DNA of 64,000 nt from Bacteroidota bacterium. Its GTDB lineage: Bacteria; Bacteroidota; Bacteroidia; UBA4408. The stretch lies in NCBI GenBank assembly GCA_040385525.1, contig JAZKHE010000004.1, positions 35,357-99,356 on the forward strand, read 5' to 3'. A program made the translations under genes and the position numbers. The first letter of the stretch is position 1. Each line of letters begins with the position of its first letter. The notes under the pieces were generated by a model. It saw only the letters and a program-made list of their open reading frames with translations. It was not told where the DNA came from and ran no database searches. This document shows, one piece after another, positions 25,192 through 35,426 of this stretch.

Positions 25192-27264
25192 CTATGCTTT
25201 TATTGCATTTTCAAGCTCATTTATTTGGTTATTAATTACTGTTTCAAATTGAAAATAATCTTCTTTTTTAACAAACACATCATTTTTTACCCAAGCATCT
25301 GAAGCAAAATCACAAATCATTTTTTTAATCTCTTTTTCTTCAATTCTTGAAAAAGAAGTTAAGTGTTGTGCCATTTTAAGCAGCAATAATTTGTTGCGTT
25401 TTAAAATTGTTTCAGCCTCTTGTTCACATTCGTAAATTAAGGTCATTACTTCTTCACTATGTATTGATTTATGCACGATAGCTAAATCATCATGCGTATG
25501 TGAAAATCGGATAAATACAGGGTCATTACCCATCCCATATTCTTTTATAGCGCGATTAGCCATTTCACTTATTTTTTCAATATCACTAGAAACACCAGAC
25601 GAAGTTTGTTCTTCCCCAAAAATAATTTTTTCAGCCACATATCCTCCTAAACCAATTATTATTTCTTTTTTTAGAATTTCACGCGTGAGTGGTCCCTCTG
25701 GCATATTCACCATACAAAAACCTTCAGCAGTTGCTGAAACAGTTTTAGAAACAACTAAAGAAGGAATAATACGTAGTGTTAATGCAGCCAAAATAGCATG
25801 ACCTGATTCATGAACAGCTGTATGAGCTTGCAAATTTTTATTGTTAATTTTTCGGAGTTCGCCTACTTTAAGCATAGGCTTTTCAACATAAGTATTAATT
25901 GTATTATTTGCATGATCTTTAAAAACAAAAATGAAATTTTCATCTACATAATCCCAATTTACAGAATTTGTTTCTAGTTTTTTTTCAATAATTTCTAAAA
26001 CTATTTTACTTATACTTCCTTCAATTACATTTTTAACCGTTGTGAAAATTGGCCTTGTACCTTGAGCTGGATAAACCCCCTCGCTGTAAACTACATCAAC
26101 AACATTTTCGCTAAAATTAATTTCAAAATTGAAATATTCTTTTACATATATGTTTATTGCATTTAGTTTTTGGGTAATGATATCTCTAAAATTTTGATTG
26201 GTAAAAGAACGAAAGATGATATGATTATTTCCCAAACGGGCAATTTGTTCGTTTCGAAATCTTTCTTGAAGAGCTTTTTTTATATGCGCTACATTTATTT
26301 TTAGAGTTGCTTCATTCAATTCATCAGCACTAATATCTGGATTCATACTATGACTCATATAGTAAGCCTCATCTAAATTTCCTAAAACAAAAATAAGTCC
26401 TCTAGACAAATCCAATTGTTTAATAGCGGTTCTTTTGTTCATGCCTTCTATTAGCAAACGTTGAATGCCTTTTAAATCTGTATTTTCAATAATCTCCTTT
26501 AATTTGTTTCTAGTTATAGATAGATCATTATATAAATAGAAAACTCCATCAATAAAATCATTAGAAAGAAAATAATTGCTATTTACACTCTCTCCATTTC
26601 TATTAGCATTCTCAAAATAAAAATCGCTAAATGTATTTAAAAATTCACTTTCACTATTTATTACAACTCCATCTCTGATACCAACTCCTTTATCTTCGCA
26701 TTTAAGCAAATAAACCAGACAAATTTCTGCACGCACAACGTAGTAAGAATTATGATAAGGTATGTAATTCACTTTACCACTATCAAGTAAATCCCATATT
26801 ACTCTTAATTTATCTTTTCCTAATTCATTACCTTCTTTGTTTATCGTTCTCGCAAACTGAAATTCATCAAAACAAATTATACCCGGCTGCTCATGGAAAA
26901 ATTCTAGGTCATCAGTAAACATTCCTTTTATCCACGAAGCCGAATCTGATTCAAATTCACCCATATCCATTTGAACATATAAACGCTTGTAATCCAATAA
27001 TTCAACCATTTTGTTTACTAAAGCAGTTTTTCCAGATCCGGTTAAACCCCACATATTAATTACTGTTGGTCTTAGTTGAGCGTCAGGAAAAAGATACCAC
27101 GGTGTTATTAAATTAATTACTTCATCAATAATATTATTTAGTCCAATAAATTCTTTTTTCAAAGTTTTTTGTACTTCGTTTAATCTTTGTTTCTTTAAAA
27201 CTATATTATCGTATATATCGATTTTATTCATATTATTTTTTCTTTGTAAACTTTGATCCTTCAT
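25192..27264 (-). CDS. Cytoplasmic P-loop ATPase fused to an FtsH-like M41 zinc-metallopeptidase domain. No transmembrane segment.
   Basis: Walker A GLTGSGKT and Walker B ICFDEFQ in the N-terminal half. C-terminal HESGHAIL (HExxH) and the third-ligand region [40 protein letters not shown] match the FtsH protease domain. Its start overlaps the 3' end of prfH by 32 nt. Confidence 0.65.
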
Positions 27265-27862
27265 AAATTCTTTTAGGATTTCCGCGTTCGAGTAAGTTAT
27301 GATTATTCCACAGTTTATATTGCTCTTCCATTGCTTGATGTAATTGCCATTTAGTATACTCTTCTTGTAATTTTAATGCAGCAATTTTTTTATTCTGTAA
27401 TTGTGAACGGCTCTCATTTATAGTAATCTGTATTCCAGAGGAAATGTGTTTAGCTCTTACAGCCGTTTCCACTTTATTTACATTTTGACCTCCAGGGCCC
27501 GAAGAACGCATAGTTTGATATACAATATCCTTTTCATTCCATGGTGGGAGGTCTATTAAATTAATATTGTAAATTCCAATGAACCAGTTTTTTCGTTTAT
27601 GCAATTTTCTATATGGGCTTTGATTGATCCAGAGTAAAACACCTGTCCATGAATTTATAAAACTATCTACATTTTTACCTTTCAATTTAATAGATACAGA
27701 AGAATAAGTACCTTCTTCAATTCCTTTAGTTTGTTCAATTATTTCATACATCAATTTTAACTCATTTGCTTCTTTTAGCAATTCATTTAAAGCTAACGCA
27801 ACTGCCTTACAGCATTCTGAAGGGCCTTTTCCCGATGTTATTTGTATAATTTTTGTGTCCAT
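27233..27862 (-). CDS. prfH: Peptide chain release factor homolog PrfH (RF-H).
   Basis: 209 aa with GGQ motif ([16 protein letters not shown]). N-terminal ...[17 protein letters not shown] typical of PrfH. It lies immediately downstream of an rtcB, the classic rtcB-prfH pairing. Confidence 0.75.
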
Positions 27863-27904: not shown

Positions 27905-29308
27905 TTAACTTTTATTCATCCTTACTATTCTTGGCGTAAACGAGCCTTCAACATTAACGAGGCCGGATTGATTACTCATAACTGTTTCAATATCTTTATA
28001 AGCTAATGAAGATTCTTGGACACTACCACCAATTAATTTAACCTTGTGTTGATCAAGAGTTACGTTCATTTGTGATTTTGTTATTTTTTCACTTGCTTCT
28101 CTTCTCGACATTTTTCTTCCAGCTCCATGTGAAGCAGAGTTCAATGAACCTGAAGCTCCAACACCACTAACAATATAGCCTTTACTCGTCATACTACCCG
28201 GAATGATCCCCAATTCACCTTTAGCAGCAGGGGTAGCTCCTTTTCTGTGCACTATTAATTCTTGCCCATCGTGGATTTCTTTCCATGCAAAATTGTGATG
28301 GTTTTCAACTTTACAAATGGCTTTTAAACCCATAAAACGTTCTAGATTATTATGAATTACATCGTGGCAAGCTTTAGCATAGTCGCCTGCTAAATTCATC
28401 GATAACCAATATTCTTGGCCAGCTTCGTCATCCATACTCAACCATGCCATAGAACGCATTTCTTTTGGAAGTTTACATTTTTCCATTGCAATTTTTGTGT
28501 AAATACCTGCAATAGTAGCTCCCATTCCTCTAGACCCGCTGTGCGATAATAAGCCAATGTATTTCCCTGCAGCAATTCCTAAAGCGTTATTTTCATTTAT
28601 TTCCACATCACCAAATTCAACAAAATGATTTCCTGTACCCGAAGAACCTAGCTGATAACGAGCTTTTCCATGCAATCTTTTAAGCAAATCGGTTGCTTTA
28701 AATTCCCGTCGTTCCAAAACTTCATGATCTACATCAAAATCAAGCGTACCATCATTACCAAAATGAGTACATCTACGTAAAGCTTTTTGCAAATCATACT
28801 CTTTTTTAAGAATATAATTTTCTGGCAATTCATAGATACTTAAAGCCATTCTGCATCCAATATCTAAGCCAACTCCAAAAGGAATTACAGCGTTGTTAAC
28901 AGCAAGTGCAGCTCCAATTGGTAAACCATAACCATGGTGCGCATCAGGCATTAAAGCTCCTTTAACCGATACAGGTAAACGCATCGCTGCTTCCATTTGA
29001 AGAATAGCATTTTGACCAATAAGACGTTGACCGTAAATAGTAAAATCGCCAGTGTTTTTAAGCACATGAACTTCGTAACTGGTTTTAATTTTTGGCTTAC
29101 CACATAACTCATCTGATAAGGGTTTCAAAAATTCGTGTTCCAAATATTGTTCAGGATCTAAAAGAACGTTATTAATTATTTCTAATTTTTCATCTATCGA
29201 AAAGTGTTTATAGTTTTTCGACATAATATTTATAGCCACACTTTTGGCTATATCTGATGGGAAATCAAATTTTCTAAGATGCTTTCCCGTTATGAGATTT
29301 TTTCCCAT
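27905..29308 (-). CDS. rtcB: RtcB-family RNA 3'-phosphate ligase (paralog B, PrfH-associated).
   Basis: 467 aa. RtcB motifs GNHFVEFG, HSGSRGMG, SASHGAGRKMSR. Confidence 0.8.
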   Translation of the reverse strand: MGKNLITGKHLRKFDFPSDIAKSVAINIMSKNYKHFSIDEKLEIINNVLLDPEQYLEHEFLKPLSDELCGKPKIKTSYEVHVLKNTGDFTIYGQRLIGQNAILQMEAAMRLPVSVKGALMPDAHHGYGLPIGAALAVNNAVIPFGVGLDIGCRMALSIYELPENYILKKEYDLQKALRRCTHFGNDGTLDFDVDHEVLERREFKATDLLKRLHGKARYQLGSSGTGNHFVEFGDVEINENNALGIAAGKYIGLLSHSGSRGMGATIAGIYTKIAMEKCKLPKEMRSMAWLSMDDEAGQEYWLSMNLAGDYAKACHDVIHNNLERFMGLKAICKVENHHNFAWKEIHDGQELIVHRKGATPAAKGELGIIPGSMTSKGYIVSGVGASGSLNSASHGAGRKMSRREASEKITKSQMNVTLDQHKVKLIGGSVQESSLAYKDIETVMSNQSGLVNVEGSFTPRIVRMNKS

Positions 29309-29490
29309 GATATTTTTTAAATTTTATGGGCATGATTTTTCCTTTACAGTTTTTTTAATGCAAAGGATAAGTTCATAAAACGCATAGCATTTTTACCCTG
29401 TTTTTTTTTATAAAATGATTTTTTGGTTTCCGGATTTTTCTGTCTCCCCAGAATTTTATTTGTTTTTAGTTTATTTTGAAAAAATAAAAC

Positions 29491-29520
29491 AAATAAAAAA
29501 GCCCGGCATTAAACCGGGCT
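29491..29520 (-). terminator. Rho-independent terminator downstream of rtcB paralog A.
   Basis: Minus-strand reading: GCCCGGTTTAATGCCGGGC hairpin (6-bp GC-rich stem) followed by TTTTTTATTTG. Confidence 0.6.
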
Positions 29521-29909
29521 GAATATATTGATATTAGCAGCTTTTCGGCTTAAAACGTCGTATGTGAATTTGCTACTAACATAATTTCTTTTCTTTTTTT
29601 GGTTGGTGTTTTTTAATAAATCTGTCACAAATGTAAATCAAAAAATTGATTTGTCAAGTACAAAATATTTTTTTTTGCGTTAAAATTATTTCATTTATTT
29701 TTTTTAACCTTCAGAAGCATTGTAAAAAAAGGTGTTATAGAGGTTAATTAAAATGATTATAAATTTACCAAAGTCAAAAAAATTAAACAAAGTTTTTGTT
29801 GAGCTATCAGTTATAAAACAGAATAGGGTTTCAACCTAGATCCTTCAATTTGTCAATAGACAGACGACGATCAACCGAAGTGTCTCTATTCATGTCACTT
29901 TTGAATACT

Positions 29910-31331
29910 TTAATCTTCTCTGCTGCCATCATCTGCCATACGAACAATTTTAGGAGTAAATTTTGCAACTACATCAATTAGGTCTTTTTGTGAAGCCATA
30001 ACAGTTTCTATATTTTTATAAGCCATCGGTGCTTCATCTAAACCAGCACCAATTAATGTTACACCATGATCCTTTAGTACTTTTCTCATTTCGTCTTTAG
30101 AAATATTTTTAATTGCTTGTGTTCTACTCATTTGTCGACCTGCACCGTGTGATGCTGAATTAATTGCATTTGCTTCACCTTTACCTCTTACTAAAAAACC
30201 AGGGGCTGTCATTGATCCAGGTATAATACCCATTACATCTTTAGAAGCAGGAGTAGCACCTTTTCTATGAACAATTACTTCTTCTCCGTTCCACATCTCC
30301 TTCCAAGCAAAATTATGATGGTTCTCTACTTTAGCCAATACTTCTGCACCAATAGCTTTAGCTAAACGATTGTGAATTATTTCATGACAAGCTGATGCAT
30401 AATCACCAGCTAAATTCATTGCCATCCAATACTCTTGTCCTTCAGCAGAATTCATATCTAAGTAAGCTAAATTTGCTGCTTCTTTAGGAAGTTTACAAAT
30501 TTCTTTCGCTACTTTGGTATAATATCCTGCTATTGTTGCACCAAATCCTCTTGATCCCGAATGTGTTAACAACGCTAAGTATTTTCCTTTTTTGATATTT
30601 AATTTTTCATCATCATTTTCAAATTCAATAATTCCAAATTCTACAAAGTGATTTCCGCCACCTGAAGAACCTAATTGTTCAACAGCTTTTTGTTGAAGAT
30701 TTTTTACAAACGGTGTCATATTAAACTCTGTTCTATCTAATATTGAATGCTCAGCTCTATATTTACCATGCCATCCAGCGCCAGCGCCAAATTTAGTCCA
30801 GGCAATTAACTCTCTTTTATATTTGCTTTCATTCTCTATAAAATGATTCTCATTAATATCATAGATGGACAAAGCCATTCTACAACCAATATCAACGCCT
30901 ACACCATAAGGAATAATAGCGTTTTTTGTAGCCAATACTCCACCAATTGGTAAACCATACCCTTGATGAGCATCAGGCATTAAAGCACCAGCAACTGTTA
31001 CGGGCAATTTCATGGCTATTTCCATTTGATTAATTGCGCCTTGCTCAATGTTTTCTGAACCAAAAATAGAATAAAACATTCCTTGCTCTTTTAATGCAAC
31101 AGTAGCATCTTCATTTGGTTTTTCAATTAATTTTTGAGCAATAGCTTCAAGAACTTCGTCGTCTAAAAAGTTCTCTGGATATTGAACTACCTTAGTTAAA
31201 ATTGCGATTACTTCCTCTTTCTCTAATTCAGCATAATTTTGCTCAACTACTTTAATGGCTATTCCAATTACTTTTCCTTCAGGATAACCTAAAGCTTTTA
31301 ATTCAGCTCCTGATACGTTAACTATTTTCAT
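29910..31331 (-). CDS. rtcB: RtcB-family RNA ligase (paralog A).
   Basis: 473 aa. GGGNHFVEFG, HSGSRGFG, SASHGAGRQMSR. Roughly 50-55% identical to paralog B by eye. Monocistronic: an operator-like palindrome lies upstream and a terminator downstream. Confidence 0.8.
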   Translation of the reverse strand: MKIVNVSGAELKALGYPEGKVIGIAIKVVEQNYAELEKEEVIAILTKVVQYPENFLDDEVLEAIAQKLIEKPNEDATVALKEQGMFYSIFGSENIEQGAINQMEIAMKLPVTVAGALMPDAHQGYGLPIGGVLATKNAIIPYGVGVDIGCRMALSIYDINENHFIENESKYKRELIAWTKFGAGAGWHGKYRAEHSILDRTEFNMTPFVKNLQQKAVEQLGSSGGGNHFVEFGIIEFENDDEKLNIKKGKYLALLTHSGSRGFGATIAGYYTKVAKEICKLPKEAANLAYLDMNSAEGQEYWMAMNLAGDYASACHEIIHNRLAKAIGAEVLAKVENHHNFAWKEMWNGEEVIVHRKGATPASKDVMGIIPGSMTAPGFLVRGKGEANAINSASHGAGRQMSRTQAIKNISKDEMRKVLKDHGVTLIGAGLDEAPMAYKNIETVMASQKDLIDVVAKFTPKIVRMADDGSRED

Positions 31332-31418
31332 CTTGTTTTTTTTAATTATGATACAAAATAAATACTAAACTACGCAGTCAAATTGCGCAGTTGATTTTTT
31401 TTCATTTTTTTTTAAAAT

Positions 31419-31440
31419 CCCTCGCCCAAATTGACGAGGG
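31419..31440 (-). terminator. Possible terminator hairpin after the SPFH gene.
   Basis: CCCTCG-cccaaattga-CGAGGG hairpin 10 nt after the stop. Only a short U-run (AUUUUA) follows on the minus strand. Confidence 0.3.
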
Positions 31441-31450
31441 ATGCTACAAT

Positions 31451-32551
31451 TTATTTACCTGGAACAAATATCTGTTTTAACTGATCCACTAAATGAGTTC
31501 CTCCTGACAATGAAATATTATTAATTTTCTCTGCAATCTTCTCTACATATTCCATTTCTTTCAATTTAAACAACATAGTGTTTTCTTCCATCAATTTAGC
31601 AGTATTCAATAAACTTCTAGTTGAAGCAGTTTCTTCTCTTCTCATGATGGTATTAGCTTGAGCCTTTTTCTCCGCAACTAATACTTGATTCATAATATCT
31701 TTCATATCTCCTGGCAAAATTATATCTCTGATACCACTTCCTTTCAATACTACTCCCAAAGATTCTACTTTTTCAGACATCGACTCCATAACATAAGCTG
31801 AAATAGATTCTTTTTTTTCTAACAACTCATCTAATGTTAATGAACCTATGAACTCTCTCAAAGCTAATTGCAACAGTACATATAGTTGTTTATCATACTC
31901 CTTGTTATTTACTAACGCCTTAACAATATCTTTTATATTGTATTGAGCATAGAAATTAACTCTTAGTGCTGCTTTGTCTTTTGTCAAAATCTCTTGTCCA
32001 GCAATTTCCATTTGCATAGTTCTTAAATCAGCTCTTGAAATCACAATAGAAGTGCTATTCTTCCAAAAGTTGTAAGTACCTGACTCCATGATTTTATGAA
32101 ATTTACCATCAACATACATCACTGCTTTTTCATGTGCTTCAACTACAAAGTTCCTCACAAATGGGGCGATTTCTTTTTTAGTCAATAAAGATTTATCGAT
32201 GTCATTATCAATTTCAATTTGATTTAAATCAATGATATTAAAATTGTAATTTATCAAGCCTTTCCAAAAAATGTATCTACCAGCATTTAATACAGTAGTA
32301 AATAATCCATTTTCGTATTGTAAAGCAATTTCATTATTTTTTACTTCAACAATCAAAGTTGCATTTAGAAAATCTTCATTTTTTAATAAGATATTTATAT
32401 TAACTGGCGCTATTAATGGTTTTGACATATCACAGTCAAATACAACCATAGTTGGCCACAACCAATATGTACCTTCGTTTAAAACTTTTACCAAATTATC
32501 ATTTTTAAACACTAAGCCTTTTTTCCAGGCATTTATTTTTACTCTTTTCAT
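31451..32551 (-). CDS. SPFH/band-7 (stomatin/HflKC-like) domain protein, apparently without a TM anchor.
   Basis: SPFH core ...TKDKAALRVNFYAQYNIKD...LDELLEKKESISAYV...GVVLKGSGIRDIILPGDMKDIMNQVLVAEKKAQANTIMRREETA. N-terminal triple repeat of a GTYxFW hairpin motif. Confidence 0.6.
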   Translation of the reverse strand: MKRVKINAWKKGLVFKNDNLVKVLNEGTYWLWPTMVVFDCDMSKPLIAPVNINILLKNEDFLNATLIVEVKNNEIALQYENGLFTTVLNAGRYIFWKGLINYNFNIIDLNQIEIDNDIDKSLLTKKEIAPFVRNFVVEAHEKAVMYVDGKFHKIMESGTYNFWKNSTSIVISRADLRTMQMEIAGQEILTKDKAALRVNFYAQYNIKDIVKALVNNKEYDKQLYVLLQLALREFIGSLTLDELLEKKESISAYVMESMSEKVESLGVVLKGSGIRDIILPGDMKDIMNQVLVAEKKAQANTIMRREETASTRSLLNTAKLMEENTMLFKLKEMEYVEKIAEKINNISLSGGTHLVDQLKQIFVPGK

Positions 32552-32869
32552 TTTATTTTTGTTTTAATGATGGATGAATCCGGCATCATACCATCGGGGT
32601 TATTTAATTTTTTATAAAAAAGAAGGAACAATTCATTCATTAATTTTAAGCGAAGTTCGACTTAAGCTCATGTCTCAAATGATGGTTTATATAAATTCAT
32701 AATCCATTAAAAGGAAAACTATACTTTATAGAAAGCAGCATCTTTACAGAAGCGGTATCCGTGCCCCTTGGCAAATCATCAATTGCTTTTTACAAATTTA
32801 TATGCTAAAGCTGAATGAGATTATCCCTTCTTAATTAGGAGCCTTTTTTATAGAAGTTGGCGTCTTCTT

Positions 32870-33011
32870 CCACTGAAACCACAATTCAGCGCTCTAACCA
32901 ACTGAGCTATTCCAATTTTGAGCTGGAAGCAGGATTCGAACCTGCGCTTTGAGGTTGCTGCTCTACCAACTGAGCTATTCGCTATTAACGAAATGGGAAT
33001 CGAACCCATGA
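32870..33011 (-). pseudogene. Cluster of degenerate tRNA-like fragments: a 5'-truncated tRNA-His(GTG)-like piece, a related 5'-truncated piece fused to an unrelated T-arm/acceptor, and an isolated T-arm+acceptor 3' piece.
   Basis: Minus-strand reads GGAATAGCTCAGTTGGTTAGAGCGCTGAATTGTGGTTTCAGTGG (D-arm plus anticodon arm, loop TTGTGGT gives GTG), GCGAATAGCTCAGTTGGTAGAGCAGCAACCTCAAAG|CGCAGGTTCGAATCCTGCTTCCAGC, and CATGGGTTCGATTCCCATTTCGTTAA. None folds into a complete cloverleaf. ORF 32848-33072 is spurious. Confidence 0.5.
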
Positions 33012-33403
33012 CACACAACGTGAGACACACAAAATAATTACGCAGAATACAAGCAATCAAAGATTGTTGCACTATGGGGAAAGGAAACCCTCATCTTGGC
33101 GCAAAAATTTATTTATGCATCATTCTCCTCTTTTCAGAGAAGATTTTTAATCCTGATTTTCAGGAAATATTTTCAAGGAACTTTATTACTTTAAATCAAC
33201 GATGCAAATTTTATACTCATGTACGCAGTCGAATTGCGTACTAAAATTATTTTTAAATAGTTTATCAATTTAAAATGTAAATGACTGGTTTTCAACAAGA
33301 AAAAATCACTAGTAATTAGGTTAATTTTAAATCTACGCAAATACAATGCGTAGATGATTAATAAATAGTATATTTACGTTAACTAATTTTTCAAAACTTC
33401 AAT

Positions 33404-34417
33404 ATGCCAATTAATAAATTAGCTTTAGTTAGATACAAAACAATAGATAATTGTTTGCAAAATCGTTTTAGAAAATGGACATTAGAAGACTTAATGGAAG
33501 CCTGTTCTGATGCGATTTATGAATATGAAGGAATTACAAATGGAGTAAGCAAACGCACTATACAACTAGATATTCAGAACATGCGCAGTGAAAAACTAGG
33601 ATATAATGCCCCTATTATAGTTACAGATAAAAAATATTATAGCTATGAAGAAAAGAATTATAGTATTACTAATATTCCTTTAACACAACAAGATTTAAGC
33701 ACCTTGAATGAAGTACTTGATGTATTAAAACAATTTAAAGGTTTTGGTTATTTCCAAGAATTAAACGGAATGGTTACTCGTTTAGAAGATAAACTTTATA
33801 AACAACAACATAGAGGCAAGTCATATATTGATTTCGAAAAAAACGAATTATTAAAAGGATTAATACATATTGATGCACTACATAAAGCAATTATTAATAA
33901 GAAAACAATTGAAGTAACTTATCAATCATTTAAAGCAAAGCTTCCACAGCAAATTGTATTTTATCCCTATTTATTAAAAGAATACCGCAATAGGTGGTTT
34001 ATTTTAGGTGCAAATAAAAATGGAAAAACAATAATGATATTAGCATTAGATAGAATAGAAAAATTTAAAGAATTAAATTCTGAAAAATATCACAAATCAG
34101 AATTTGATGTTAATACTTATTTTAATGATGTAATTGGTGTTTCAAAAATGCCCACCCAGAAGCCACAACTTATTGTTATGAAAATAATTAAAGAGCATGC
34201 TCCATATATAATTACAAAACCCATGCATAGTTCACAAAAAATTTTGAGTGAAGATTCTGAAGGAGTTATCTTTTCAATTGAAGTTATTTGGAATTTTGAG
34301 CTGGAAAGAGAAATTCTTGGCTTTGCTGAACATTTAAAAATAGTTAGTCCTAAAAGATTATCAGGAAGAATACAATCACGAATGAAGAATACACTCACAA
34401 AATATCAAATGGAATAA
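33404..34417 (+). CDS. WYL-domain transcriptional regulator (HTH_11 + WYL; BrxR/CapW-like architecture).
   Basis: N-terminal HTH (GVSKRTIQLDIQNM). WYL hallmark YRNRWFILGANKNGKTIMILALDRIEKF. Two palindromic TACGCA-N7-TGCGTA sites lie upstream. Confidence 0.65.
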   Translation: MPINKLALVRYKTIDNCLQNRFRKWTLEDLMEACSDAIYEYEGITNGVSKRTIQLDIQNMRSEKLGYNAPIIVTDKKYYSYEEKNYSITNIPLTQQDLSTLNEVLDVLKQFKGFGYFQELNGMVTRLEDKLYKQQHRGKSYIDFEKNELLKGLIHIDALHKAIINKKTIEVTYQSFKAKLPQQIVFYPYLLKEYRNRWFILGANKNGKTIMILALDRIEKFKELNSEKYHKSEFDVNTYFNDVIGVSKMPTQKPQLIVMKIIKEHAPYIITKPMHSSQKILSEDSEGVIFSIEVIWNFELEREILGFAEHLKIVSPKRLSGRIQSRMKNTLTKYQME

Positions 34418-34491: not shown

Positions 34492-35130
34492 ATGACTGAA
34501 AATAACAAGCACTTAGAGAACCTTTCCGAAATTAGAACATTAATGGAAAAATCTTCTAGATTTATTTCATTAAGCGGTTTATCGGGCGTTGCAGCAGGGT
34601 TATTTGCTTTATCTGGTATTGTGGCAGCCTATTTATATTTGCCTACTGTAATGAAGTCGGGTGAATACTATAAAGCTGCATTCACTGATAATGGAGAAAT
34701 TAATTTTCAATTTTTTAGTTTCTTTATAGTTGATGCAAGTATTGTTTTGTTAGGCTCTATTGTTTTTGGAATTTACTTTACCGTTAGAAAATCACAAAAG
34801 AAACAACAAGCTATTTGGGATAATACTTCAAAAAGATTACTAATAAATTTATCTATACCCCTAGTTACTGGCGCAATTTTTTGTTTCGTTTTATTATACC
34901 ATGGCTTAATTGGTTTAATAGCCCCTGCTACTTTAATTTTTTATGGTTTAGCGTTAATAAACTCTAGTAAGTATACATTAAATGATATTAGATATTTAGG
35001 GATAATTGAAGTTATTTTAGGCTTAATTTCTTCTTTCTTTATTGGTGCTGGATTATTGTTTTGGGCAATTGGTTTTGGTGTGCTTCATATAATTTATGGT
35101 ATTGTTATGTACAATAAATACGAAAAATGA
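34492..35130 (+). CDS. Hypothetical integral membrane protein (4-5 TM).
   Basis: Hydrophobic segments. The next gene overlaps by ATGA. Confidence 0.45.
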   Translation: MTENNKHLENLSEIRTLMEKSSRFISLSGLSGVAAGLFALSGIVAAYLYLPTVMKSGEYYKAAFTDNGEINFQFFSFFIVDASIVLLGSIVFGIYFTVRKSQKKQQAIWDNTSKRLLINLSIPLVTGAIFCFVLLYHGLIGLIAPATLIFYGLALINSSKYTLNDIRYLGIIEVILGLISSFFIGAGLLFWAIGFGVLHIIYGIVMYNKYEK

Positions 35131-35426
35131 AAACATACATTGAGGACTTAAATAAAGCTTTTGAAAGTAGAATTAGGCTCGGCATTATGTCTATACTTAT
35201 GGTTAATGACAGCGTTGATTTTGCTACCATTAAAGAGTTATTAGATATTACTGACGGTAATCTTGCAAGCCACATATCTGCATTAGAAAAATTAGAATAC
35301 TTAAAAGTTATTAAACAATTTGTAGGAAAAAAACCAAACACTTCATATAGCATAACTAAACAAGGTAGAAAAGCCTTCACAAACCATTTAGATGCTTTGG
35401 AAAAATTATTAAAAAATAGAGCATAA
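35127..35426 (+). CDS. Small winged-helix transcriptional regulator (PadR-like).
   Basis: 99 aa. wHTH-like pattern and basic wing (FVGKKPNTSYSITKQGRKAF). Translationally coupled to the upstream membrane protein. Confidence 0.5.
   Translation: MKTYIEDLNKAFESRIRLGIMSILMVNDSVDFATIKELLDITDGNLASHISALEKLEYLKVIKQFVGKKPNTSYSITKQGRKAFTNHLDALEKLLKNRA

Follow-up and report, generated by a model that had tools for sequence, protein, structure and literature searches.

A predicted WYL-factor operator shared by the promoters of a Bacteroidota RNA-repair locus

The locus and its three palindromes

In this study, we analysed a 64,000-nucleotide stretch of a Bacteroidota genome (contig JAZKHE010000004.1, positions 35,357–99,356; hereafter the window), in which a gene for a transcription factor with a WYL domain is encoded divergently from genes for an RtcB-type RNA ligase and an SPFH/Band-7 protein. 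A preliminary description of the window had noted similar palindromes upstream of the regulator gene and of the ligase gene, rtcB-A, and our analyses concern the possibility that these palindromes are operators of the WYL factor. The features involved are as follows, in window coordinates (aa, amino acids; E, E-value):

29910–31331, minus strand: rtcB-A, RNA 3'-phosphate ligase, 473 aa (Pfam RtcB, E 3.1e-82)
31353–31361, minus strand: predicted Bacteroidetes -7 box of rtcB-A, TTATTTTGT, its TTTG 13 nt past operator A
31370–31390 (core 31371–31389): operator A, CTACGCA-GTCAAAT-TGCGCAG, in the rtcB-A promoter
31419–31440, minus strand: CCCTCG-N10-CGAGGG, a hairpin that comes behind the stop codon of the SPFH gene and has a weak T tail
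31451–32551, minus strand: SPFH/Band-7 protein, 366 aa (Pfam Band_7, E 1.3e-29), directly upstream of rtcB-A
32600–33200, minus strand: structured non-coding RNA region of ~600 nt, between operator B and the SPFH gene
33205–33212, minus strand: predicted -7 box of the RNA + SPFH promoter, AAAATTTG, its TTTG 13 nt past operator B
33221–33241 (core 33222–33240): operator B, GTACGCA-GTCGAAT-TGCGTAC, a perfect palindrome in the minus-strand promoter
33331–33355 (core 33334–33352): operator C, ATCTACGCA-AATACAA-TGCGTAGAT, in the regulator's own promoter
33369–33376, plus strand: predicted -7 box of the regulator promoter, TATATTTA, 16 nt past operator C
33404–34417, plus strand: winged helix-turn-helix (wHTH)-WYL-WCX transcription factor, 337 aa, predicted operator binder

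Transcription of rtcB-A is predicted to start near 31349, giving a leader of ~18 nt. The hairpin at 31419–31440 might conceivably be a terminator that parts the SPFH gene from the rtcB-A promoter; it was not called by the terminator scan.

The three sequences given in the preliminary description, TACGCAGTCAAATTGCGCAG at 31371–31390, GTACGCAGTCGAATTGCGTAC at 33221–33241 and ATCTACGCAAATACAATGCGTAGAT at 33331–33355, were all found at those positions, and operator A lies 40–58 bp upstream of the rtcB-A start (31331), in keeping with the distance it reported. Its figure of 17 identities in 18 positions between operators A and B requires only a trivial correction, to 15 of 16 over ACGCAGTC[A/G]AATTGCG or 16 of 18 over the 18-mer that starts with T. 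It had also placed two of the sites upstream of the WYL gene. The distances hold (52–70 and 164–182 bp from 33404), but the distal site is unlikely to be an operator of the regulator gene. This is because operator B is 13 nt from a TTTG on the minus strand (33208–33205), the arrangement of a site that heads the RNA + SPFH unit, and it is this unit, rather than the regulator gene, that operator B most likely controls.

When up to one mismatch was allowed, TACGCA-N7-TGCGTA matched the 64-kb window at only three places (31371–31389, 33222–33240 and 33334–33352), all three of them in promoter regions of this one locus; the degenerate form T[AG]CGCA-N7-TGCG[CT]A also matches all three. The chance expectation for the palindrome is 0.07, and none of 100 shuffled windows attained three matches. 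Two copies of the extended core ACGCAGTCRAATTGCG, common to operators A and B, are present against 0.02 expected. There was no sign of weaker copies in the window beyond the three, as a search with three mismatches allowed returned 14 matches versus 16.4 by chance. Operators B and C are alike in their arms of 6–7 bp but not in their spacers.

Distribution of the palindrome in related Bacteroidota

A protein 100% identical to the regulator, P0001, marks the source of the window as a Bacteroidota metagenome-assembled genome. Relatives of the regulator number in the thousands, and for comparison we used a set of 80 genomic loci whose regulators are 53–88% identical and which together comprise 1.01 Mb. 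These loci contain 126 exact sites of the form T[AG]CGCA-N7-TGCG[CT]A, compared with 0.2 in shuffled sequence, and 102 of the 126 lie no more than 250 bp upstream of the regulator gene. At least one site was present in 60 of the 80 loci and at least two in 54. Paired sites are typically at about -60 to -70 and -160 to -185 from the regulator ATG, 101–113 bp apart. The proximal site, at about -50 to -72 in 66 loci (the window counted), has a conserved spacer with the consensus AATAgAT. Most loci also have the distal site, between -152 and -215 relative to the ATG, and its geometry is always that of a target site on the minus strand.

The genes behind the remaining sites indicate what the operator may serve. 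By Pfam, the gene that comes first after a non-proximal site, on the opposite strand, encodes Ro60/TROVE in 40 cases, RtcB in 15 and an SPFH protein in 11. The 15 RtcB operators are 15–52 bp upstream of their genes, placed as operator A is, and at the 11 SPFH-heading sites ~600 nt of non-coding DNA separates site and gene. Other operator-headed genes in the relatives are tRNAs and genes for RlaP nucleotidyltransferases, for an exonuclease of the DEDD/RNase T type, for a small S24-like protein and for an uncharacterised 744-aa protein. The palindrome thus marks the predicted promoters of an RNA-repair gene set of varying composition, of which the window holds a reduced version without Ro60.

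Because these loci were gathered through the regulator gene, we also used just the DNA consensus to search metagenome contigs and stratified the 120 hits by G+C content (GC). Among the low-GC hits, 18 of 30 had the regulator or homologs of RtcB, Ro60, SPFH, RlaP, DEDD or the 744-aa protein (cluster c14) within the short stretch available. The GC-rich hits (GC ≥0.45) behave as chance matches, repair genes being present at 1 of 90.

Several recurrent features of these islands were observed in passing. The c14 protein (~744 aa; for example, L040 4289–6520) recurs behind operators in islands, also in L087, L128, L132, L152, L160 and L177, and has only a weak match to Prok-RING_4. A second recurrent element of operator-controlled units is a pair consisting of a 105-aa S24-peptidase-like protein without a helix-turn-helix (HTH) and a DEDD/RNase T-type exonuclease (clusters c4 and c7; for example, L026 1558–1875 and L067 685–1230), which is absent from the window. 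In addition, three metagenome contigs of GC 0.48 (L111, L136 and L182) have five degenerate palindromes within ~700 bp, and no recognisable regulator or repair gene was found in those stretches; we take this for a repeat array whose match to the motif is fortuitous.

Promoter geometry

On the target strand the palindrome is followed by a TTTG at a nearly invariant distance: of 71 target sites, 52 have a gap of 13 nt and a further 12 one of 14 nt. In Bacteroidetes the sigma-A -7 box is TAnnTTTG at -12 to -5 (PMC9723704). We take the conserved TTTG to be part of the -7 box since only ~22 nt remain between it and the RtcB start codon; for the same reason, its assignment as a -33 element was rejected. 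If the TTTG is the -7 box, the target operators span about -40 to -22 and stand in place of the -33 element. The target promoters are atypical: of 67, just 2 have the canonical TA of the -7 box, and 8 have a -33 TTG at the right spacing.

The regulator's own promoter is canonical, with 15–16 nt from the site to TAnnTTYN in 36 of 66 loci. In 52 of 66 regulator promoters a TTG at the junction of spacer and right arm lies 19–20 nt upstream of the -7 box, which is the -33 position, and in the window this is the TTG within the right arm of operator C (33345–33347, at the TGCG junction). The operator of the regulator gene is predicted to lie at about -47 to -28, 6–7 bp further upstream than in the target promoters.

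The regulator and its half-site

The regulator belongs to the WYL family, with a WYL domain at residues 156–221 (PF13280, E 1.9e-11, 44.2 bits versus a cut-off of 21.8), a WCX domain at 257–330 (PF25583, E 1.5e-8, 35.3 bits versus a cut-off of 23.9; modelled with predicted local distance difference test (pLDDT) scores of ~80–90) and a match to the PADLOC WYL model (E 2.9e-22). The Pfam scan of the regulator gave no HTH match. Its AlphaFold model has, at residues 5–81, helices at 5–19, 27–42 and 50–59 and a beta wing at 71–81, which is the arrangement of a wHTH. Searching with this model by Foldseek produced full-length alignments to DriD (E 3.5e-13), PafBC (E 5e-12), and BrxR and CapW (E ~1e-7); by sequence, the only match in the PDB was the C-domain of DriD, at E ~0.7. 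Residues R195, R197, W198 and R217 are invariant across 35 homologs of the regulator. No relative was found in viral contigs.

The half-site and the regulator change in concert. In 11 Chitinophagaceae-like loci there is no TRCGCA site, and CTGTGCA-N7-TGCACAG is found in its place. Residue 54 of the regulator is Q in all 61 loci with TRCGCA and R in all 11 with TGTGCA; it is one of ten alignment positions that separate the TGTGCA clade and it sits in the third helix of the modelled wHTH (50–59), the predicted recognition helix. More distant regulators from metagenomes (46–52% identity) that stand beside TGCGCA sites retain Q54, which argues that the change to R54 is not merely a matter of evolutionary distance. 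The concerted change of half-site and recognition-helix residue ties the palindrome to the WYL protein. The TGTGCA clade (L062–L078) has one palindrome for the two divergent promoters; the TTTG of one promoter is 13 nt away, and the -7 box of the other is 19 nt away on the opposite side.

The RNA upstream of the SPFH gene

Between the SPFH gene and operator B there are ~650 nt without open reading frames, and the region at 32600–33200 has a folding z-score of -4.8. Two tRNA-like pieces, one of them truncated, were recognised in it: one at 32921–32982, which matches the Rfam tRNA model with 35.3 bits (gathering score 29), and another at 32845–32916. The region also has two tandem YrlA-like modules, each with a T-arm, stem and D-arm (32955–33017 and 32891–32946). 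These score 46.2 and 30.7 bits against YrlA (RF02553), below its gathering score of 69, as only the tRNA-like module (model positions 23–86) matches, and does so twice. The predicted RNA would work like a Y-RNA module, but we do not class it as YrlA. The blocks GTTCTTTGAA, ATATGCTG and GATACCG are common to nine distantly related SPFH loci. The region gives the impression of a large relative of the predicted 'b7a-tRNA' and of Y RNA, built of several modules.

Neighbouring genes without the operator

Three genes on the minus strand, next to rtcB-A, form a unit in which no operator was found, including in the 600-bp gap upstream of RtcB2:

25192–27264, minus strand: AAA+/peptidase M41 FtsH-like protein
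27233–27862, minus strand: PrfH (TIGR03072, E 6e-70)
27905–29308, minus strand: second RtcB (RtcB2), separated from rtcB-A by a 600-bp gap

The FtsH-like gene overlaps the end of prfH by 32 nt and is conserved after RtcB2-PrfH in L007 and L033, and its retention there suggests that the PrfH-RtcB2 pair is here a three-gene unit. Upstream of RtcB2-PrfH is a conserved leader (window 29490–29660, minus strand; L007 13726–14376; L027 9666–10204) that contains a promoter-like sequence, TTTGATTTACATTTG, an upstream open reading frame of 10 codons at 29581–29549 (MLVANSHTTF*; in relatives MLALNLNKHT* and MLVLNLHTKP*) and an intrinsic terminator, AGCCCGGTTTAATGCCGGGCTTTTTT (29520–29495). This leader looks like a leader-peptide attenuator in front of a ribosome-rescue pair.

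Arrays of tRNA genes, of up to 23 genes, are found beside the regulator and repair genes in 36 of the 80 loci (L002–L076; for example, L024, L025, L029, L031, L039 and L070–L076). Of their 419 tRNAs, 417 share the strand of the repair genes, and the unusual tRNA-Ile(UAU) is present in the arrays. Anabaena has similar 'L-arrays', which have spread horizontally and are regulated together with rtcB (PMC8421152). A number of the tRNAs belong to units headed by an operator, but no operator was found for arrays that lie downstream of the regulator, even when two mismatches were allowed, and we count these as neighbours rather than as demonstrated members of the regulon.

Discussion

Our analyses make it probable that the WYL factor, by binding the palindrome, governs the expression of its own gene, of rtcB-A and of the RNA + SPFH unit. 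The preliminary description had proposed that the WYL protein autoregulates and controls rtcB-A, and this proposal has gained support from the conserved position of the sites in 60 of 80 loci, from the co-variation of half-site and residue 54 and from the motif-first scan, with its 18 of 30 low-GC hits. The predicted regulon is also wider than rtcB-A, with the relatives adding Ro60, RlaP, the DEDD exonuclease, the small S24-like protein and some tRNAs.

Other explanations of the palindrome itself appear improbable in differing degrees. That it is bound by a different, unlinked DNA-binding protein, with the WYL gene as just one target, is improbable. The collection of the first locus set via the WYL gene would favour such a reading, but that gene is the only DNA-binding gene common to the related loci, the half-site shifts with its residue 54 and distant Q54 homologs keep TGCGCA. 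The nearby HTH_34 gene (35127–35426) is not conserved in the related loci and so is a poor candidate for such a binder. We regard it as very improbable that the palindromes act in RNA, as hairpins, terminators or processing sites. Site A does resemble a terminator on the minus strand, with nine pairs followed by a T-rich tail; however, the arms do not co-vary at their variable position (57% complementary versus 51% expected, with 17% A/C mismatches), and the sequence itself is conserved beyond what mere pairing would require. Moreover, sites B and C are in a divergent promoter region, and the position of the -7 box, 13 nt past the palindrome, places the sites ahead of the predicted starts. On these grounds the hairpin/terminator reading was rejected. 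Least probable of all is that the motif has no part in regulation and is an intergenic repeat of a generic kind or the site of a recombinase or invertase. The 17-base consensus alone does match many GC-rich metagenome contigs, although those 90 hits look like chance with repair genes at a single one. In the window and in 1 Mb of relatives, the motif occurs only in the promoters of one gene set and keeps a fixed spacing from the -7 box. It has no recombinase gene beside it, and sites B and C share only their arms.

How the factor acts at the operator is a more finely balanced question. Given that it binds there, we lean, by a little, towards ligand-dependent activation of the targets combined with autorepression. 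Most likely, a homodimer of the factor would occupy each operator and read either half-site with one of its recognition helices. Operator A would serve rtcB-A, operator B the RNA + SPFH transcript on the opposite strand and operator C the regulator gene. RNA damage would yield a ligand derived from nucleic acid that binds the WYL domain, and the operator-bound dimer would then recruit RNA polymerase to target promoters that have no -33 element, as SiwR and PafBC do. By occupying the -33 region of its own promoter the regulator would limit its own synthesis.

The chief competitor is the same protein-operator pair working purely by repression, in which the factor would sit on the -33 region of every promoter until a ligand releases it. 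To this we assign a lesser but still substantial likelihood, as every operator overlaps the -33 region, the TTTG of the -7 boxes is highly conserved, BrxR and CapW, which have the same fold, repress from palindromes (PMC9186387) and a repressor was inferred for the functionally analogous regulon of rtcB and a tRNA array in Anabaena (PMC8421152). Against it, the target promoters systematically have neither a -33 element nor the T of TAnnTTTG, and the spacing of 13 nt is rigid across non-orthologous promoters, a rigidity that repression does not need. In addition, the closest structural and geometric precedents, SiwR, PafBC and DriD, are activators. These same features, namely unrelated genes with rigidly spaced promoters that have no -33 element and only part of the -7 box, structural matches to the activators DriD and PafBC, and the precedents of SiwR and PafBC, are the basis of our leaning towards activation.

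A bolder form of that activation model is tentative, and we consider it less likely than not. In this form the factor would be a dual-mode sensor of damaged RNA, such as the ends of cleaved tRNA or rRNA, that represses its own promoter, replaces the sigma-A contact at -33 in its targets and co-induces a whole RNA-damage island. The island would comprise RtcB, Ro60 or SPFH with tRNA-like RNAs, RlaP, exonucleases and spare tRNAs.

Several points weigh against our interpretation. The 80 loci were gathered via the regulator gene, an ascertainment bias that the motif-first scan only partly offsets. The correlation of Q54 and R54 with the half-site stems from a single clade transition, and the N-terminal domain of the regulator model is of only modest quality (pLDDT 45–71). 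With respect to activation, an operator centred near -31 is in the classic position for a repressor too, and the WYL factors BrxR and CapW do repress. The strong conservation of TTTG in the -7 boxes means that the target promoters may fire unaided.

The locus bears on how RNA damage is detected in bacteria without RtcR and how RtcB, Ro60/Y-RNA and SPFH/tRNA-like RNA systems are induced there. It supplies a testable regulator, a 19-bp operator, predicted promoters of fixed geometry and a candidate specificity residue, and cultured carriers exist (Taibaiella chishuiensis, Rufibacter roseus, Foetidibacter luteolus and Pseudoflavitalea sp.). It would extend WYL factors from the control of DNA damage and phage defence to RNA repair, with an explicit predicted binding site. 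Were the dual-mode sensor reading true, there would be an RNA-damage response in Bacteroidota that is independent of RtcR and has a one-residue code (Q54 for TGCGCA, R54 for TGTGCA), as well as a mechanism resembling 'sigma adaptation', which has so far been shown only in Actinobacteria.

Comparison with known systems

The closest parallels to the predicted system are among WYL activators. SiwR of Mycobacterium smegmatis is an activator that binds, as a homodimer, a 19-bp imperfect palindrome between -35 and -10 (PMC10693628). Like the factor described here it is a homodimeric wHTH-WYL protein encoded divergently from its target operon with a 19-bp palindrome as its site, although homodimeric binding is a prediction in our case, and it activates under stress. 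SiwR differs in being actinobacterial, in working at sigma-70-type promoters and in having DinB-like targets and a genotoxic or oxidative signal, whereas the promoters here are of the Bacteroidetes -33/-7 type, several units are headed by operators and the targets are RNA-repair genes. Another mycobacterial WYL activator, PafBC, works by 'sigma adaptation', a -26 element replacing the -35 (PMC8635444, PMC11804915). It has the same WYL-WCX fold, and its promoters likewise have no upstream sigma element and carry the factor's own element at a fixed short distance: tGTCgg is 10 nt before tA(N3)T for PafBC, and TGCGCAG is 8 nt before the 8-mer -7 box here. However, PafBC is a heterodimer with a single -26 element and binds single-stranded DNA (ssDNA), whereas the full palindrome here suggests a homodimer on both arms.

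DriD of Caulobacter crescentus (PMC9186387; PDB 8tp8, 9pfq), our closest structural match, is a WYL activator of comparable length (327 versus 337 aa) that binds a palindrome of 20 bp and acts on its own gene in addition to its targets, as we predict here. Its site differs in ending at -36, just upstream of an intact -35, while ours covers the -33, and DriD has DNA-damage targets and an ssDNA ligand. The structures of DriD, PafBC and CapW all have bound ssDNA (PMC9186387, PMC8635444), with which the idea of a nucleic-acid ligand for the WYL domain agrees, and RNA fragments with cyclic-phosphate ends have been proposed as ligands for WYL factors associated with RNA repair (PMC9503650). The wHTH-WYL-WCX architecture, palindromic operators in the promoter of a neighbouring system and autoregulation are also features of BrxR and CapW. 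These two are unlike the factor here in their length (~285 aa), in being weaker structural matches and in being repressors of phage-defence genes (BREX, CBASS).

Among known RNA-repair regulons, the rsr-yrlBA-rtcBA operon of Salmonella and E. coli (PMC7790460) follows the same logic, with a dedicated sensor-regulator, RtcR, beside RtcB, Ro60 and Y RNA, and with induction by damaged RNA. RtcR, however, is a CARF-domain enhancer-binding protein for sigma-54 that acts on a -24/-12 promoter, in contrast to a WYL factor at housekeeping-type promoters. No RtcA or RtcR domains were found among the genes of the locus, the part of the window screened for RtcR, nor was there a sequence like the sigma-54 TGGCAC-N5-TTGC at 31332–31450. 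The L-array regulon of Anabaena (PMC8421152) likewise ties rtcB to tRNA genes by a shared promoter element and is induced by translational stress. There, repeats of 9 nt in direct orientation cover the -10 and the start site, and the repressor is a postulated one; here the element is a palindrome at -31 with a candidate regulator, and most tRNA arrays of Bacteroidota have no operator.

In the literature searched, which did not include Burroughs and Aravind (2016) itself, we found no account of the operator, of how the promoters are laid out or of the candidate specificity residue. According to works that cite it (10.1101/312249, PMC9503650), that study predicted RNA-repair systems composed of RtcB, Band-7 and a 'b7a-tRNA', and of Ro60 and Y RNA; WYL factors are stated in PMC9503650 to regulate some RNA-repair pathways. 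All three parts of the predicted RtcB-Band-7-tRNA-like RNA system are present in the window, the RNA as a predicted transcript, and the related loci add Ro60, RlaP and further ligases to it.

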